Shown: positions 1,033 through 64,000 of the stretch, piece after piece
Numbering within the stretch: the first letter of the stretch is position 1
How the letters are laid out: each line of letters starts with the position of its first letter
From: Mobula hypostoma
Lineage: Eukaryota
NCBI RefSeq assembly: GCF_963921235.1
Contig: NC_086097.1
Location: 121,274,001-121,338,000 of the forward strand
DNA length: 64,000 nt
Reading direction: 5' to 3'
Notes under the pieces: model-generated
The model's database searches: none
The model's input: only the letters and a program-made list of their open reading frames with translations
What the model was told of the DNA's origin: nothing
Made by a program: the position numbers and the translations under genes

Positions 1033-2454
1033 GTAAGTTATGAGGCCAATGTGAGATCCACGTGCTTCTTCACAGATGAGGTGATTTAGTAGTAACTTGA
1101 GGTAAGGTGCTTCCTTCAATTGTTTTTAATGCATTTCTGAGCTCTCCCAGTTCAAATGATCGATTGATCGATAGATAGATAAATGAATTTATAGACCCCT
1201 TGCATGTGACTCTATACTGTCGGTTGCGGAGTCAGTTCAGCAGTTTCAGTTGTCTTGCTTCAGACGGCCGAAGCAACTAGTTGAAGATGTCAGTAAACAC
1301 TCACAATACCATCCTTGTGCTCCTTGTCTTCGAGTAGTCATGGGCCAGCTAGGCGTGCAACCAAAGCAACTTGCTCAAGGAAGCCAAATGACTTTAACCA
1401 ATGCTGCAGTTCTGGGATGTTGGCCAAGGCAAAGAGGTTAATACTGTTTCAATTTGCTTTGAGGATTTTGTGGAGAAAGCATTGATGGGATCGTCCCATT
1501 GTCTTGAGATTCCTACTGTAGGTAATCTGAGTCTCAGATTTCTATAGGTTTAGTGCTGTTTAGGGGAGCCTTGTGCCATGTTTGAGGACTTGAGAAAATG
1601 TAGTATGTTAAAGATTGGTGAACAGAGTACACAATTTACATCAGTTGTTCAAAAAATTTGCAAAAACCTAATGCCTGATAATGTCATTGACATTAACCAA
1701 TACCATCTGAAATAGACAGCGGCCACTTTAAGATCATCGTGGGTTATTCAGCCTATGTGCTTGGAACTTCCTTCATAAGATTATACTAATCTTTTCTTTT
1801 GCTGAAATTTCCATCTGTGTTTCCAATTCCATATACCTTGATATTTTCAAAAGCATTTGTGGGGAAGGAATTACAAACTGCAACAAATTTATTTGTGAAA
1901 TGGACATTATTTTGGTTCCAAGAAGTCCTAGTAATTTTAAATTCTTGATGTTTTCCTTAAAAATTTTGTCACAGAACATTTTATCATTGTATACCTCATC
2001 CTTTTGTATTCAGGAAAATAAAGTTAACGTAGCCTGCTTCCATAATGAACCCCCTGAAGCTTCTTATCATTCTGCAAATCTTCCCTGCACATACTCAAGG
2101 ACAATGCATTCTTCCTGTGAAACTGAACACAATACTCCAGATGGAATTCAACCAAGGCTACGTTCAACTTCCTCCTCTTTGTATTTCAACAACACATGAA
2201 GATAAAGGACAACGTTTCATTGGCCTTCATAGATTGCTTTTTGTGCCCATATACTGGCTTTTATTGATTTATGTACGTAGATAGACTTTATAAATCTGAC
2301 TGCACCCACACAGTTCCCTATTTATCAGCATTTAGAATTTACTTCAGTTTGTTCCTGGACACATTCCAGGTTAATACCACTTTTACATTCTTTCAGTTTG
2401 ATTACAAACTCTTTCCACGACTATTTCTCTTACTCTGAAATGTAGCAAGATTTG

Positions 2455-2975
2455 CCGCTCAACATCAGGAAGACCGGTTTCAAGTTCCTGGGTGCGAACT
2501 TCTCTGAAGATCTATCCTGGGCCCAACATATTGATGCAATTACAAAGAAAGCATGACAGCAGCTATATTTCATTAGGAGCTTGAGGAGGCTTGGTATGTC
2601 ATCAAAGACACTTGCAAGTTTCTACAGATGTACCATGGAGAGCATTCTAACTGTTTACATCACCATCTGGTGTGGACAGCATTGCACAGGATCAGAAAAA
2701 AGCTGCTGAGGATTGTAAACTCAGCCAGCTCCATTACGAGCACTGTCCTCCCCAGCATCAAGGACATTTTCAACACACAATGCCTCAAAAGATGCAGCAT
2801 ACTTCATTCAGGAACCCACCAACCGGGGCATGCTTTCTTCTAATTACTATACTCATTACTACAAACAGGGAGAAGGCACAGGAGCCAGAAGACACACACT
2901 CAACTTTTTTGGAACCTTCTTCCCCTCTTCCATCAGATTTCTGAACAGACAATGAACCCATGAACACTACCTCAC
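2455..2975 (+). mobile_element. Old Rex1/Babar-like LINE 3' fragment
   Basis: Degenerate FKFLG...LSW..HI..ITKKA.Q.LYF.R.LRR motifs and typical 3' region. Confidence 0.6.
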
Positions 2976-3555
2976 TATTTTTGGTCTCTCTCTTTCTCAC
3001 ACATACATAATATATATATTCTGAAGTGTCTGATGTCGTTGAGAGGTCTGCTCTTTCTGGTACCCAACGCCCAAATAGGAACAGATGGTTCCAAGTTATC
3101 AATCAAGACAATATGCATTTACTAGTATTAGAATAAATCTGAACACAAAATCTTTTAGAATTCAGTTCAGTTAAATGTACATCACTTAACTTTCTGAGAA
3201 CTCCTCCGATAGAACTTCCAGAAAAGCCACTGAGGAAATTTCAGTGCAGTATGCCAGTTCTAGCCTCTAGAGGCACATTTCATTTTGTATGACCATCATT
3301 TCGATATGTAAATTGTTGTTATGCCATTTCCTGTGCGGGTTAGTTTTGATCTGATTTGGTGTGCACAGTGGTAAAACACACATCTCTATTTACTTTTTAT
3401 TTGCCATGTATTGCAATATACTGCTGGCGCAAAAACAACAAATTTTCATGACATGTGCAGTATCTATGAGTTTTAAGCTGTTGGTAATATTGGTACACAT
3501 ATTCTGAAGGAAGGATTATGTTTAAATTTATCGTTATGCTGCAAGTTTACTCTTG

Positions 3556-4142
3556 ATGAATAAACTCTTCTCAGGCTTCCAGCCAGGTACAGGTATCAAT
3601 TATAACCAGCGTTTCAATGACAAATTCTGCAATACTAACGTAAGGAAAAGGAGCAGGATTAGGCCATCTGAGCCTGTTGCACCATTCAATAAGATCACGG
3701 CTGATCTGGACACCTACCTGCCTTTTCCCCACAACCCTTAATTCCCCTACTATGCAAAAAAAAAATCATTGAAACATTGGTTATAATTGATACCTGTACC
3801 CAGCTGGAAGTCAGAGAAAAACTTAATCATCATCTGCGCTGGGAGACCCAGTTGGTGGCCTAGTGGCATCAGTGCCGGACTTCGGGACGAATGATCCCGA
3901 GTTCGAATCCAGCCGGTTCCCCTGCACGCCTTCCATCCGTTCTGGCTTATGAGCTGGTGATCTCTTTGGAAACTCACCCAGCAGAAGGCAATGGCAAACC
4001 ACTGCTGTAACATGCCTCGTACGCGCTTCCCCACTACGTCAGAGAGGCATGGAGGGAAATCATCCGCTAACTGGAGAAACTCCGGATGCGATGTACCTTT
4101 CTTTTTCTACGTTGGGAAAGCACTATATCCTGTTTCAAGCTG
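3556..4142. mobile_element. Composite insertion: inverted Penelope-type termini plus CR1 tail plus SINE, 7-bp TSD actcttg
   Basis: TSD at 3549-3555 and 4143-4149. 3556-3620 is an inverted repeat of about 3766-3830. The paralogous segment near 12035 lacks the insert. Confidence 0.6.
3845..4105 (+). mobile_element. tRNA-derived SINE
   Basis: Pol III A box tggcctagtgg and B box gagttcgaatcc; imperfect TSD tctgcgctggga / tctacgttggga. Confidence 0.8.
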
Positions 4143-4397
4143 ACTCTTGTTTACACTGGCTAGTTATGGAGTGTTGCAATGTGTACTACCTTGATTAACA
4201 CAGGCTATGAGAATAATCAACAATATTAGTACATTCAGATACATGAAGATTCTGTATTGAATTTAATATGTATTTTACTTAAATCTCTGTAGTTTCACAA
4301 GTAAATAGATCTCATTAAAAACCTGAAGAAAGATTCTACCTCATGTGATTTTTGAGAAGTTGTTTAGCTTGCTACATATTTGTGTTTATATGCACAG

Positions 4398-4518
4398 TGA
4401 GGGCAGTAGAGTGAAAAGATTGCTTTTCTTCAAAGGCATCGCCAGCAGACTGAAAGCTGTAGATGATAATGTCAGCTTCCGACCTGTACAACGTCGATCA
4501 CCAAGACCTGGAAGTCAG
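4398..4518 (+). CDS. Candidate exon B (SEGSRVKRLLFFKGIASRLKAVDDNVSFRPVQRRSPRPGSQ)
   Basis: Acceptor ...tatgcacag, donor CAG|gtgaga, 121 nt open, phase-compatible with exons A and C. Confidence 0.4.
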
Positions 4519-4559
4519 GTGAGAATGTAGCTCATTGGTTGTGTCTTCTCAATGCTCGA

Positions 4560-5230
4560 ACGAATCCGCAGTTCAAATGACTCCAGCACCAGCATGCTGA
4601 AGAGGCAAGAAAGAGAGTAGCGGGTGCTGAGCACCAAGTTCAGATGCAAAGGAGAAAGCTCAGATAGGCATGGAGAGAGGACATATGGAGGGTACATTAT
4701 GTGCACTCAAGGAAGAGTGTGAAGATGAGGCTGCCTCCGTAGAGGCAGTTGTGAGTCTATAACCGGAATCAGTCATGCTTTGCCATCTCAATAGCTAATG
4801 CATCTTCCTAAAGAATATGTTCAAATGCATTTTGGCAATAAAAAAGACAGTGCTCCAGCTCTACAAGGAGAACCTATCTACACTGCACAGCCAACATGCC
4901 TTTTACATAGTCCAGGTATTGACAGTCAAGGTCTACAGCAACAAAGACCCACAGCACCTCCTTCTGCAATTCCACAATAGCAAAATCCCCAGTCAAGAGT
5001 TGCTACTGATGCCAATCCCGTCTGCACAGAGATGGATAGACTGAACTTCCATCCATCTCAGCAAACACATATGGCAAACCAATCTCCACAGTGCTCGCAT
5101 TCAGGAGCTGCAGATGCATTTGATTTGGCTTGGCATCTGCCTCATCAAGACCGACGCACAGCAGGTTAGACAACCAGTCTGCAAGTTATCTGTCCTGGAA
5201 GTCAAGTTGCAAAATCCAAGGGTTCCCTAC
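4560..5230 (+). mobile_element. Probable BEL/Pao gag remnant (left part of a split element)
   Basis: Degenerate purine-rich coding-like sequence. Colinear with a clearer BEL pol remnant at about 10960-11330 on the far side of the nested insertions. Confidence 0.35.
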
Positions 5231-49875: not shown

Positions 49876-50442
49876 AATCAGTAGCCACTTTATTAGGTAC
49901 ACTGGTACACCTAGTTGTTAATGCCAATATTTAACCAGCCAATCTCATGCCAACAACTCAATGCATTAAAGCATACAGACACGGTCAATTGATTCAGTTG
50001 TTTTTCAGAACAAACATCAGAATGAGAAAGACATGTAGTCTAAGTGACTTTGACCGTGAAGTGATTGATGGTGCGAGACGGGGTGGTTTCAATATCTCAG
50101 AAACTGCTGATCTCCCAAGATTTTCACACACACCAGTCTGTAGAGTTTACAGAGGACGGTATAAAAAGCAAGAAACATCCAGTGAGTGGCAGTTCTGTAG
50201 ACAAGAACTCCTTGTTAATGATAAGTCAGAGGTGAATGGCCAGACAGGTTGAAGCTGGCAGGAAGATGACAATAACTCAAATAACCGCTTGTTACAACAA
50301 TGGTGTGCAGAACAGCATTTCTGAACCCACAACATGTTGAACCTTGAGGTGGATGGGCTAATGCAGCAGAAGACCACGAACATACATCCCCAGGGCCTCT
50401 TTATTAGGTATAGGAGGTACCTAGTAAAGTGGCTACTCAGTG
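49876..50442 (+). mobile_element. Tc1-like non-autonomous transposon
   Basis: TIR cagtagccactttattaggtac / gtacctagtaaagtggctact; HTH remnant LSDFDRE.I.GARRGG..ISETADL. Confidence 0.85.
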
Positions 50443-57445: not shown

Positions 57446-58045
57446 CACTCAGTGCTATTCTATTAGGCGCACTTGTACCTATTAGGCAAATATCTAATCA
57501 GCCAATCATGTTGCAGCAACCCAATGCATAAAGAGGTTCAGTTGTTCTTCAGACTAAACATCAGAATGGGGAAGAAATGTGATTTAAGTGACTTTGACCA
57601 TAGAATGATTGTTGGTGCCAGATGGGGTGGTTTCCGTATCTCAGAAACTGCTGATCTGATTTTTTCACGTGTAACAGTCTTTACAGTTTACAGAGAATAG
57701 TGCAAGAAGCAAATAAAAATCCAGCGAGTGGCAGATCTGTGGGCAAAAACACCTTGTTAATGAGGGAAAACTTGTGAAGATCAGCAGATGCTGGAAATCA
57801 GAATGATACACACAAAATGCTGGAGGAACTCAGCACATCTGGCAGCATCTATGGAAAGGAATGAACAGCCGATGTTTCAGGCCAAGACTGATGAAGGATA
57901 TGCAGTGGTGTGCAGAACAGCATCTCTGAATGCACAGTACATCAAACCTTGAAATGGATGGGCTACAACTGCAGAAGACCAGGAACATACACTCAGAGCC
58001 CACTTTGTTAGGTACTGGAGGTATCTAATAAAGTGGCCACTGTGT
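57446..58045 (+). mobile_element. Tc1-like non-autonomous transposon with inserted Penelope fragment (about 57775-57898)
   Basis: Same TIRs and MGKKCDLSDFD..MIVGAR remnant as the 49876 copy. Confidence 0.8.
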
Positions 58046-59452
58046 CTATATCAGTACACAGCACATAGTATATAAATAGACAACATAGACAGAAGATCAG
58101 ATTTAATTTAAAACAATACTGCACTTCCTTATATATTATATAATAATGCTTAGTTAGACAAGGTAATCTGGGTAATATCAGTCCAAGATTCAGGATTGTT
58201 TGATGTTATTTCCAGTGAACAAGTATAAAAAAGAATGAAATAACTGTTACTCCAAATCCAATGCAGCACAAAAGAAGTACAATAAGATAAAGAACTCAAT
58301 AATAAAACATTCAATAAATCTAAATACATGGGATAGCTTATATACATTGATTGATTGTGTGTCCACAAAGTGACGCTAAACACAGGAGTGTTCATACATA
58401 AGGTGATTCTAAAAGGTAGCAATAAACTAGTGGTGGTAGGGGACTTGGGATGGTGGTGATGATCTGCCTTACAGCTTGTGGAAAGTAACTGTTTTGAGTC
58501 TGGTGGTCCTGGCATGGACGCTACATAGCCTCCTCCCTGATGGGGGTGGGACAAACAGTCCATGAGCAGGGTGGGTGGGATCCTTTATGATGTTACTAGC
58601 CCTTTTCTGGCACCTTTCGGTATATACGTCCTTGGTGGTGGGTAGAAGGGTGCTGGTGATGCGTTACCCATTGTAGAGCCTTCCTCTCTGCCACAGTGAA
58701 GTTTCTGTAGAGTGTGGTTTCAGTGCAGTTCAGCGAGCTGTGAGGTGCAAATAGTCACTATCTGCATTTGCATTCGATCATCTTATACATCGAAGAGTTA
58801 AGCTGCCCTTAGCTATGTCAGTGTCTTCCAGCATCTCAATTAAATGTGCAGTCATTTGAAAAATACGGTCTCTGTAATTCATTGTTCTTTCACAGATGCA
58901 AGTCATAACCCAAGTGATTGATTAGCAATGGACACTTAAGCAAGGAAGGGTTTCGCGCAATGGAATCTAAACTTTGACATTAACACTGTTCTCTTTTCTT
59001 GGTGAGAAATGCCCAGGGTGGTGTTCCCATACTTGGGAACAATGTATTTGTTTTATAAGTGAAGTGCAAGGGCATATTGTTGATAAAACCTCAGTGCATA
59101 ATACAGTTTGTCTGTCTTTGGTGCATGTTGTTCATGTCTTGGTTACTAATTCTACTAACATTACAAGTTGCAAAATATACCTTCGGCATTTAAAACATGG
59201 AACGTAGAACAGTACCGCACAGGACCTGACCATTCGACACACAATGTCGTGCCAAACCAATTAAATTGGTAATCAAATGGCTGACTAAACTAACCTCTTC
59301 TGCCTACACAATATCCATATCCTTCCATTTTCCAGCCTGATCCCAAAGTTTCTGCTATATGATGCAGTCACTGAAGTCAGAACTGAGCCGACTTGTGAAG
59401 ACCAGCTTGCTGACAGCCCTCTACTGAACTGCTGGCGTAAGATACAGTACAT

Positions 59453-59995
59453 ACACTCAATGGCCACTTTATTAGGTACCCCTGTACACCTACTCGTTAA
59501 TGCAAATATCTAATCAGCCAATCATGTGGCAGCAACTCAATGTATAAAAGCATGTGGACATGGTCAAGAGGTTCAATTGCAGTTCAGACCAAACATCAGA
59601 ATGGGGAAGGAATGTGATCTTAAGTGAATTTGACCATGAGGCAAGACAGGGTTTGGGTTTCTCAGAAACTGCTGATTTCCTGGGAGTTTCACACACAACA
59701 GTCTCTAGAGTTTACAGAGAATGGTGTGCAAAAAAAACCAAAAAAAAACCTAGTGAGTAGTAGTTCTTTGAGCGAAAACCCCTTGAGAGATGTCAGAGGC
59801 AAATGGCCAGACCGGTTCAAGCTAACGGGAAGGTGACAGAAACTCAAATAACCAAACATTACAACAGTGGTGTGTAGAAGAGCACTTCAAACCTTGAAGT
59901 GGATGAGCTACAGTAGCAGAAGACCATGAACCTGCAGAAATACACCCAGAGTCCACTTTATTAGGTATATGTTGTATCTAAAAAGGTAGCCATGA
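59453..59995 (+). mobile_element. Tc1-like non-autonomous transposon
   Basis: tacactcaatggccactttattaggtac TIR; SETADFLGVSHTTVSRVYREW. Confidence 0.85.
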
Positions 59996-61780: not shown

Positions 61781-62019
61781 AGTCTAGTTTGTAAAGCACA
61801 CAATGCCTATAACTTTTTATCTGACCAATAACGGTGTCACAGTTATAACTGGTGAATACCAGTCATTCTGTATGCTGTAGCATTTTTCATAAATTTGAGA
61901 ATTTTTTTTTATTCTGGAAGACAAGATGTTACATAACAAGCCCAGTAAATATGAGCATTGGTGCTTGTACGTGTAAAGCAAAGTCATTGTTATTATCATT
62001 TTATAATGATTTCCCAATG

Positions 62020-62344: not shown

Positions 62345-62391
62345 TGATGCACCTTCAATTACTCCAAAAGACTGGAAGTAGGGTAAATACT
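62345..62391 (-). mobile_element. 47-bp U5 end of a related LTR in opposite orientation
   Basis: Reverse complement agtatttaccctacttccagtcttttggagtaattgaaggtgcatca resembles the LTR end at about 62575-62621. Confidence 0.75.
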
Positions 62392-62621
62392 TGTGGTAAA
62401 CCATGTTATATATGTTGTAACTCGGTTACCTGTCTGGACACACCCCTCTGCTGACTGCCCCTGTGGCTCCTCCCACAGTGTCCTGTATAAAGGTGTTCGC
62501 CTTGCCCCTCTCCCTCAGTCCGGGGGCAGACACTCACTGTGGAGGTCGTATTGTACAGCGAATAAAAGCCTTTCAGTATTTTACCAAACCTCAGTCTTTT
62601 GGAGTAATTGAAGGTGCTTCA
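62392..62621 (+). mobile_element. 5' LTR (230 bp) of a young Gypsy element
   Basis: TG...CA; TATAAA 62486-62491; Inr-like tcagtc near 62516; AATAAA 62561-62566. Confidence 0.85.
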
Positions 62622-62647
62622 ATTTTATTCGCTGTACGTTTTAAAAC

Positions 62648-64000
62648 ATGGAACAGGCCCTGAGACCAGAAAAATTAGACCTCAATCCGCAAACACCTGA
62701 AGCTGGAAACGCATTTGAACTCTGGCTGGCCTGCTTCGAAGCGTATCTAGAGGAGATTAAAGCGACCGACCCCGTAGCGAAGCGCAGAGTTCTACTCTCC
62801 AGGGTCAGTCCACGGGTCTACTCGATGATCAGAGACCAGCCGAACTACGACGGTGCAATGAACACACTCAAAAGACAATACCTGCGGCCGATAAACAGCG
62901 TCTATGCTCGCCACCGTTTAGCAACACGGCAACAACGCCCCGGGGAATCGAGTGCTGAGTTCGTCCAGGCCCTACGGACGCTCGTGCGAGCCTGCAATTG
63001 CCAGGAGCTGACGGTGGCACAGCATGCAGAACTCCTAGTGAGAGACGCCTTCGTCATGGGGACCAGGTCAGTGTACGTGTGCCAGCGGCTGCTGGAAAAA
63101 GCCGATCTTACCCTAAATTCGGCAATCGAGCTGGCTGATACGTTGGAGGCTGCTCTGCATAACTCCGAGGTTCTCCAGGCACGCGATCCCCCGATGGCCT
63201 CGTGGGCACCGCAGACCCCGCAACCCGCCGGCGAATCGACCTCGGCTGCCGCCAGTCGTGAGTCCGCGAAGTGCTACTTCTGCGGACTGGAGAAGCACCC
63301 CCGGAAATGCTGCGCGGCTCAACAAGCTACCTGCTCCAGCTGCGAAAAGAAGGGCCACTTCTCCAAGGTCTGTAAATCAAAACCGCGAGCGGGATCGAGC
63401 AGCGCCGCGTGCGAGACGTGGGGGTCGCCATCTTCCCTGCACGCCACCACCACGTGCGAGACGTGGGGGTTGCCATCTTGGCTGCCGCCATCTTCCCTGC
63501 ACGCCACCACCACATGCGAGACATGGGGGTCGCCATCTTGGCTGCCGCCATCTTCCCTGCACGCCACCACCACATGCGAGACATGGGGGCGGCCATCTTG
63601 ATCGGCGCCACCTCCCACTGCCTACGACCAACGGGTGCTCACGCGGCACCCCACCACGCCGGACCAAGACAGCGACCCCACCCTGGCTTCCGTGACCCTC
63701 GACCAAAGCGCTCCCCACCAGCTCGCAAGGTCAATGATGGACATCCTGGTGGAGGGGCACAGGACAAGCTGCCTGTTTGACACAGGCAGCACGGAGAGTT
63801 TTATCCACCCAGCCACGGTGCAGCATTGTGGACTCATGATATGGCCGGTAAGTCGGAGGGTCACCATGGCCTCCAGGTCGCATACAACAGACATCCGGGG
63901 GGGGGTTGTGTAGTGACACTAGTGGTGCAGGGCACAGAATATCGGGACTTTACGTTACTGGTCTTGCCTCAACTGTGTGCCCCTGTGCTGCTGGGGTTGG
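62648..64000 (+). mobile_element. Gypsy gag-protease (runs off the window), premature stop at 63599-63601
   Basis: YARHRLATRQQRPGES; CYFCG...H...C and CSSCEKKGH..VC knuckles; protease CLFDTGSTESFI in the same frame after the stop. Confidence 0.92.

Follow-up and report, generated by a model that had tools for sequence, protein, structure and literature searches.

Self-priming of reverse transcription is described in PMC10085805, which cites Butler et al. 2001, as common among the Tf1/sushi chromoviruses, including those of vertebrates. In Tf1, the first bases of the RNA are reported to pair with the PBS (primer binding site) within a three-duplex 'pretzel', and the duplex is reported to be cut by RNase H (PMC10085805, PMC4600332, PMC5341516). 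For the plant Tcn1 chromoviruses and the TAR elements of Ty1/copia, self-priming was predicted by Neumann et al. 2019 (PMC6317226). The Mag cluster is presented as a non-chromoviral group of Ty3/gypsy elements with short LTRs, found in cnidarians, protostomes and deuterostomes (PMC3601003, PMC2774666).

The window (the whole 64-kb stretch of Mobula hypostoma DNA analysed here, from a genome of 3.48 Gb in 200 contigs) was found to contain the 5′ end of an LTR retrotransposon in its last 1.6 kb. Minus-strand DNA of this element is very probably self-primed in a Tf1-like manner, in a lineage without a chromodomain. Priming by a segment of the LTR, independent of tRNA, was the core of an original prediction made from the letters of this stretch. 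That core reading was upheld by compensatory changes between the two pairing arms, by the layout found in relatives and by the finding that no tRNA gene carries the exact 15-mer concerned; the further steps of the reaction are set out below as a model.

The element and its borders

With a length of 4551 bp (4.55 kb), the element belongs to the Ty3/gypsy LTR retrotransposons and is young and high in copy number. Its 5′ LTR of 230 bp (TGTGG...CTTCA) was found at 62392-62621 of the forward strand, on which all features lie unless stated otherwise, followed by the presence of a second LTR copy 4321 nt downstream of the first. This matching 3′ LTR lies outside the window, at L031 4714-4942, L031 being a piece of 10 kb fetched from window position 62001 onwards to which all L031 coordinates refer. 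It was found to end in ..GCTTCA at L031 4942, the same ending as that of the 5′ LTR. Both ends of the element were found to be bordered by a 5-bp target duplication, ATACT, the left copy of which lies at 62387-62391. The predicted LTR end at 62621 was borne out by this 3′ LTR ending and by the duplication. The LTR was found to start at 62392 and not at 62345, with TGTGG present there in 29 of 30 copies and TGTAG in the remaining one, and the upstream flanks were unrelated among all 30 LTR copies examined. Another 39 scored LTR copies, 97-99% identical, were found to align only from query position 38-48 onwards. The LTR was therefore placed at 62392-62621, and the element was given a length of 4551 bp, on the basis of the 3′ LTR match, the ATACT duplication and the start point shared by the 30 copies.

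The element lies nested within an older LTR of inverted orientation, which belongs to a related subfamily and is about 88% alike. The 3′-terminal 47 nt of the older LTR were found at 62345-62391 on the reverse strand, where they align to LTR positions 184-230, and the remainder was found past the 3′ LTR of the element (L031 4943-5135). The insertion site is AGTAT in the sense of the old LTR, 8 nt past the primer segment of that LTR itself. An apparent 47-nt 'terminal inverted repeat', formed by 62345-62391 and 62575-62621, was considered as a part of the LTR and was rejected, because it results from insertion of the element into this older inverted LTR.

The gag ORF was found at 62648-63601, with its ATG at 62648 and a CCHC zinc knuckle in its translation. 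No Pfam match to it was found at E<=0.01, and a protein atlas search with gag returned generic Gag-like clusters. Three tandem repeats of 60 nt, 83-100% alike, were observed in gag at 63419-63616, 3′ of the CCHC knuckle. The contig of one sequencing run was found to skip 112 nt at these repeats, so the repeat number varies among copies. The pol region starts at 63781-64000 with the protease, which contains a DTGS motif, and runs past the window to the RT, RNase H and integrase (L031 1781-4644), with the Pfam domains in the order RVT_1, RT_RNaseH and rve. The gag gene was thus found first, followed by the PR-RT-RNase H-IN order that marks Ty3/gypsy (Metaviridae). The best solved relatives were the Ty3 Gag-Pol (E = 4e-36) and the Ty3 RT (3.7e-28; 7q5b, 4ol8). 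A polypurine tract was found to adjoin the 3′ LTR, and the LTRs end in TG..CA. In this copy, the RT was found to be split over two overlapping frames (L031 2431-2686; ORFs 1781-2686 and 2431-4644); the pol of this copy is interrupted by a frameshift, and relatives have a single pol frame. A different repeat family was observed upstream in the window at 50000-50433, 57486-58052 and 59449-59990, as three diverged copies, 63-94% alike and partly inverted.

Complementarity between the LTR and the primer binding site

The LTR end was found to be followed by a one-base spacer, A62622, and then by the PBS TTTTATTCGCTGTAC at 62623-62637. As had been predicted, this PBS is the exact reverse complement of the LTR segment GTACAGCGAATAAAA at 62553-62567. 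The inverted-repeat search returned the two arms as 15 nt, 100% complementary and 55 nt apart. The 3′ end of the segment points into U5, which is the right polarity for minus-strand priming, and A62567 would bear the priming 3′-OH. The segment was also confirmed to contain AATAAA at 62561-62566, the sole such hexamer in the LTR, and it ends in AATAAAA. The LTR end, for which the 3′ LTR and the target duplication leave a single position, marks the minus-strand start; the complement begins exactly there, which favours self-priming.

The 15-nt pairing is not a matter of chance. When up to two mismatches were allowed, the 15-mer was found at only these two sites in the 64-kb window, against an expected number of 0.10, and none of 100 shuffles gave two or more matches of it. 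By our own estimate, the 15 nt that follow the LTR would match one of its 216 positions by chance with odds of about 2e-7. The distance from the 15-mer to the gag ATG at 62648 is 10 nt only.

LTR elements are usually primed by tRNA, and internal tRNA halves are reported to serve some copia elements (PMC6317226). A host tRNA, a tRNA half or a small host RNA containing the 15-mer might likewise prime this element, with the LTR match being secondary, yet the evidence makes this very improbable. The sequence next to the LTR contains no TGG-type tRNA PBS, as had been noted originally, and no tRNA was found in the 64-kb window. The PBS was compared with the host tRNAs over the genome by the exact 15-mer word only, shorter tRNA pairings being outside the reach of this check, and the word was found in no tRNA gene. 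Outside its two normal contexts, it occurs at four sites in 3.5 Gb, two of which are decayed LTR copies and two of which are unrelated single places, and none of the four is a tRNA by ARAGORN. At least 14 families were moreover found to contain different PBS sequences, each fitting its own LTR, which conserved tRNAs cannot account for.

In the young family, 30 loci were read. All 15 of 15 Watson-Crick pairs were found in 20 of them, 14 pairs in nine and 13 pairs in one. The odd pair was G-T in four of the nine young copies with a single mismatch. The mismatches of the young copies are scattered single changes, which fits the decay expected after insertion.

For the older subfamily, the genome was searched with the old LTR and 29 loci were read, seven of which extend into the leader. 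The LTR segment of this subfamily was found to be TTACTGCGAATAAAA. In L045 and L046, the PBS TTTTATTCGCAGTAA is the perfect partner of TTACTGCGAATAAAA, so that the two positions that differ from the young family are changed on both sides. The locus L060 was found to contain ..GCTAA.. in the segment and ..TTAGC.. in the PBS, a compensatory transversion, and the same segment variant was found in L033, a solo or 3′ LTR. In L034, CpG decay was found on both arms in the complementary sense. Pairing was perfect in four of the seven older 5′ LTR copies with a leader (L034, L045, L046 and L060), and the imperfect copies contained one G-T pair (L036), two mismatches (L056) and three mismatches (L041).

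Among the matches listed for the pol protein, uncharacterized proteins of cartilaginous fishes were found to be 75-92% identical, followed by relatives on many contigs at 51-66% identity and by two sea-anemone proteins at 59%. With an alignment of ten pol proteins as the query, 80 metagenome loci were obtained at 39-66% identity. A candidate pair of direct repeats, mostly of 85-270 bp, was found in 22 of the metagenome loci of at least 4 kb, three of these pairs (L063, L068 and L088) being contig-end overlaps in coding sequence. The bases adjoining the 5′ LTR end were found to complement the LTR interior in 13 of the 22, over 9-19 nt and at 51-81 nt before the LTR end. In L068 (138-246), a PBS-like word was observed twice after one segment, with loops of 31 and 87 nt, as if the LTR end and the PBS had undergone a short tandem duplication.

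A second search, free of LTR calls, was made for perfect inverted repeats of at least 11 nt in those 38 loci for which the expected upstream window contained 700 nt or more. In 18 of the 38 (47-58% pol identity), such a repeat was found, 11-19 nt long and 1475-1627 nt before the pol anchor, and in all 18 the second arm begins 0-1 nt past ..ACA. No such inverted repeat was found in any of 38 pol control windows of equal size; five other repeats of at least 11 nt were found elsewhere in the upstream windows, where the background is thus not zero. The 20 loci without a perfect repeat at the expected place were old, truncated or more distant copies. In the most distant of the relatives obtained, L114, L117, L119 (39% pol identity) and L127, the LTR ends of which were not located, no PBS/LTR repeat was found at the expected place. 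The complementarity asked of other copies and relatives was thus found to persist, being kept perfectly in 20 of 30 young copies and in 18 of 38 loci of relatives.

The 18 loci fall into 12 families, the words of which differ; ..TCTAGTCGAATAAA, ..CTAAGCTGTTAAAA, GTTTACGCGTAATAAA and GATGTTTTGATTAAA are examples. Two further families were added by L125, with 11 nt and one G-U pair, and by L103, with an 18-nt match to its 3′ LTR copy, the 5′ copy being mutated. When 16 families were anchored at the junction, 175 of 176 positions were found to pair and the remaining one was G-T. A segment set against the PBS of another family gave 6.8 of 11 pairs on average (n = 240), a value already reached because all arms are A/T-rich and share ..TAAA.

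Covariation was counted in 11 metagenome families of the AAA type, with the MAFFT register kept (alignment A4). This count did not include the window family, the two older rows, L072 or L099, the last having been misplaced by MAFFT; families ending in AAAA differ from those ending in AAA by one register. Of the cells, 97.2% were found to be paired, as compared with 74.9% in shuffles, a percentage that is partly set by construction, the rows having been selected for carrying the repeat. Changes on both sides were found at nine of the 13 pairs, with 31 such cells. None of 500 shuffles matched the observed percent paired, the number of double-change cells or the covariation score, and three of 500 matched the number of double-change pairs. 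Slid registers were found to pair at 25-49% only. RNAalifold, run on its own, predicted the same helix, with 11 of 15 pairs compensatory. The weight rests on the contrast of 18 of 38 with 0 of 38 and on the variety of pair types, because the rows were picked for the repeat. Compensatory changes between the LTR segment and the PBS were found in the older subfamily, in the L060 sub-lineage and in the metagenome families.

The segment was found to end in conserved ..TAAA in all 11 rows of A4, followed by the presence of A or G and then of CC. The LTR end of the relatives was ..ACA with a spacer of 0-1 nt, followed by a PBS beginning with TTTA. Among 16 families, the hexamer at the segment end was AATAAA in seven, GTTAAA in five, and ATTAAA, GATAAA, TTTAAA and ACAAAT in one each.

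RNA fold, RNA start and palindromic LTR copies

Under the self-priming model, the cis geometry, the cut, the RNA start and the poly(A) site would be as follows. In the genomic RNA, the segment at 62553-62567, which would lie in R, would pair with the 15 nt after the 5′ LTR. The intervening RNA, made up of the rest of R and of U5 (62568-62617), would form a stem stacked on the primer:PBS helix. In analogy to Tf1, the RNase H of the element would cut the RNA after A62567, at ..UAAA/RCC.., between the two helices, and the new 3′-OH would be extended over the spacer A62622 and U5. Extension from A62567 would account for the distance of exactly one base between the LTR end and the PBS. Transfer of the strong-stop DNA to the 3′ R would take place by means of the 10-30 nt between the cut and the putative poly(A) site. 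The progeny PBS would be copied from the primer in each cycle, and the PBS and the LTR segment would for this reason stay complementary while drifting. Such self-renewing complementarity fits the double changes that are specific to sub-lineages.

Folding of the RNA 62516-62660 gave an MFE of -45.3 kcal/mol (z = -3.37), and none of 200 shuffles was as stable. The predicted fold contained the primer:PBS helix followed by the presence of the stacked stem, in which 62568-62580 pairs with 62603-62617 and 62584-62588 with 62598-62602. Inspection by eye shows a small RCCU..AGGY hairpin behind the segment in most families, and its stem length was found to be no better than shuffles in 13 of 14.

A candidate TATA box, TATAAA, was predicted at 62486-62491 and an Inr-like TCAGTCC at 62515-62521, with its A at 62517. 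The distance from 62486 to 62517 is 31 nt, which is the canonical spacing, and 62517 lies 36 nt upstream of the segment. A start at 62517 would set the segment at +37 to +51. The older subfamily was found to contain weaker TATA/Inr boxes at that place, and no consistent TATA-like box was found at a fixed distance from the segment in eight metagenome families. The contigs from four sequencing runs were found to have loose ends at the LTR borders, as would be the case for genomic DNA, and they showed neither transcript starts nor poly(A) ends. Poly(A)-tailed retrocopies, sought in order to map the poly(A) site, gave no pattern matches. An RNA start near 62517, with a primer that is the 3′ terminus of a leader fragment some 51 nt long, and a start at 62553, the Tf1 arrangement, would be about equally likely.

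In the classical geometry, the RNA would start at 62553, its initial 15 nt would act as the primer as in Tf1, and the upstream TATA and Inr would be unused. The self-primer of Tf1, Tf2 and Tj1 is described as the RNA 5′ end (PMC10085805, PMC4600332). A primer that ends at the cap would explain the sharp end of the complementarity and would halt the plus-strand strong-stop DNA after the PBS; the bases 62552/62553 are T/G, a pyrimidine-purine step; and a TATA at a consistent fixed distance is missing in the relatives. Against these points stand the TATAAA at 62486 and the perfect Inr-like TCAGTCC (A at 62517) at their canonical spacing of 31 nt, 36 nt upstream of the segment, whereas no TATA was found 25-35 nt before 62553. 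The classical geometry is accordingly given a little less than an even chance.

With somewhat lower confidence, we consider that a widespread non-chromodomain animal lineage of Ty3/gypsy, possibly Mag, may prime with an internal piece of R. A capped leader of about 51 nt would be cut at UAAA/RCC, and one helix would both provide the primer and silence the poly(A) signal in its 5′ copy, with the 3′ copy, which lacks a PBS partner, staying open for polyadenylation. The cut junction UAAA/RCC would then be the AAUAAA poly(A) signal itself in many families. An RNA start upstream of the segment would also let plus-strand strong-stop DNA overrun the PBS on an unmodified long RNA primer, so that an extra step, as yet unexplained, would be needed.

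That the duplex may mask the 5′ poly(A) signal, as the original prediction had put forward, is plausible from the sequence for the window family. Such masking cannot account for the invariant ..TAAA in general. Five of the 16 families end in GTTAAA, and two of these five (L065 and L087) were found to contain a separate AATAAA further downstream; for this reason, the invariant ..TAAA may serve priming rather than polyadenylation.

Retroviruses use hairpins around the poly(A) signal, as in HIV-1. The long hairpin of the present element could by the same token be a structural signal only, acting in control of the 5′ poly(A) signal, packaging or dimerisation, with priming done by something unseen. 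The hairpin would indeed bury the AAUAAA of the 5′ copy alone, since a PBS is found solely downstream of the 5′ LTR. This explanation is nevertheless improbable, since the second arm always begins 0-1 nt past the LTR end, where the 3′ end of a primer must sit, since the 10 nt before the gag ATG leave no room for another PBS, and since the arm contains GTTAAA, which is not a canonical signal, in five of 16 families. Self-priming by the LTR segment is the reading preferred here.

A further group of loci was found to contain LTRs in palindromic form. In L053 (=L142), an older LTR, the PBS was found to run directly into an inverted LTR. When the junction of L053 was used as a genome query, ten full-length matches were obtained besides the query, one of which is the nested site of the window and another of which lies at G000:C2:225698719. 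All nine loci examined were found to be palindromic (L142 (=L053), L143-L146, L148, L150, L153 and L158), on other contigs of the same genome. They were found to contain an LTR followed by A, a PBS-like 15-mer and an inverted LTR, which covers LTR positions 1-3 to about 165-171 and so reaches into the primer segment, the junction lying precisely at the PBS/segment complement. The LTR of the older subfamily was complete in seven of the palindromes, and the left arm was truncated in L150 and L158. Perfect 5-bp target duplications were found around the whole palindrome in L144 (CATAC), L146 (GGTAG) and L153 (CTCCT), followed by a duplication of 4/5 in L145 and none in L142 and L143. In L148, the inverted arm was found to continue into the reverse complement of the polypurine tract.

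The best reading of the palindromes, as judged from their structure, is that plus-strand strong-stop DNA may have snapped back by means of the PBS/segment complement, been extended to the U3 start and been integrated with two U3 ends. The palindromes would be indirect evidence for annealing of the segment to the PBS in the course of reverse transcription. As another source of them, an inversion between the PBS and the segment of the 3′ LTR was considered. It fails for palindromes that end at the LTR start and may apply to L148.

Comparison with known systems

The closest analogue described for the palindromes is the cTAR-driven self-priming that minus-strand strong-stop DNA undergoes in HIV-1 (PMC6088434), in which strong-stop DNA is likewise reported to fold back and to be extended. 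The present case differs from it in that plus-strand strong-stop DNA would fold, through the PBS/segment complement, and in that the products appear to be integrated with target duplications. The palindromic fossils would be a genomic read-out of a side reaction of reverse transcription.

The chromodomain, one of the features by which chromoviruses are defined, gave no match at E<=1 in the integrase tail (221 C-terminal residues) or in any of three relatives of full length, and PF00385 was found in none of the 120 homologues listed. A place near the Mag cluster is suggested, as a lead only, by the short LTRs, the TGT..ACA ends (Table 3 of PMC3601003) and the host range.

The original prediction had left in doubt whether such priming was already described for this lineage. 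Self-priming as such is in print for the Tf1/sushi chromoviruses (PMC10085805), although the present element contains no chromodomain. In the full-text literature searched, which holds few subscription journals, no report was found of self-priming in a non-chromoviral animal lineage or of a self-primer overlapping the poly(A) hexamer. Self-priming with strong covariation would occur in a lineage without chromodomain that spans cartilaginous fishes and metagenome hosts, and it would either have arisen repeatedly or have a greater age and a wider spread than has been assumed. Host defences aimed at tRNA primer sites, such as the 3′ tRNA fragments (PMC7472051), would be evaded by elements that do without a tRNA. 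That the primer overlaps the poly(A) hexamer provides a link of 3′-end control and priming which can be tested.

With the tRNA-primed members of Ty3/gypsy, such as Ty3, the element was found to share the pol domains and their order, the TG..CA LTRs, the 5-bp duplication and the polypurine tract by the 3′ LTR. It differs from them in its PBS, which fits its own LTR and not a tRNA. In common with Tcn1 and TAR, self-priming is inferred here for a whole lineage from the complementarity of PBS and LTR (PMC6317226). Those elements belong to other lineages and hosts, and the relevant parts of PMC6317226 make no connection between them and a poly(A) hexamer.

With Tf1 and Tf2 of Schizosaccharomyces pombe, Tj1, Tosmo, Tcry and the vertebrate sushi elements, as these are described, the present element shares the absence of a tRNA PBS and a PBS that complements a sequence of its own LTR, predicted to lie in R. 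The Ty3/gypsy superfamily and the domain order are also common to it and the Tf1/sushi group. It was found to differ from that group in the absence of a chromodomain, in the very short LTRs, which are 130-240 bp in the clade, and in the 3′ end of the primer, which is the invariant ..TAAA and often the AATAAA hexamer itself. Additional duplexes next to U5 and the PBS, the 'pretzel', are reported for the Tf1 type (PMC10085805, PMC4600332, PMC5341516), whereas one long stacked hairpin is predicted here. The primer of Tf1 is the extreme 5′ end of its RNA, and the candidate start in the present element is 62517 or 62553.
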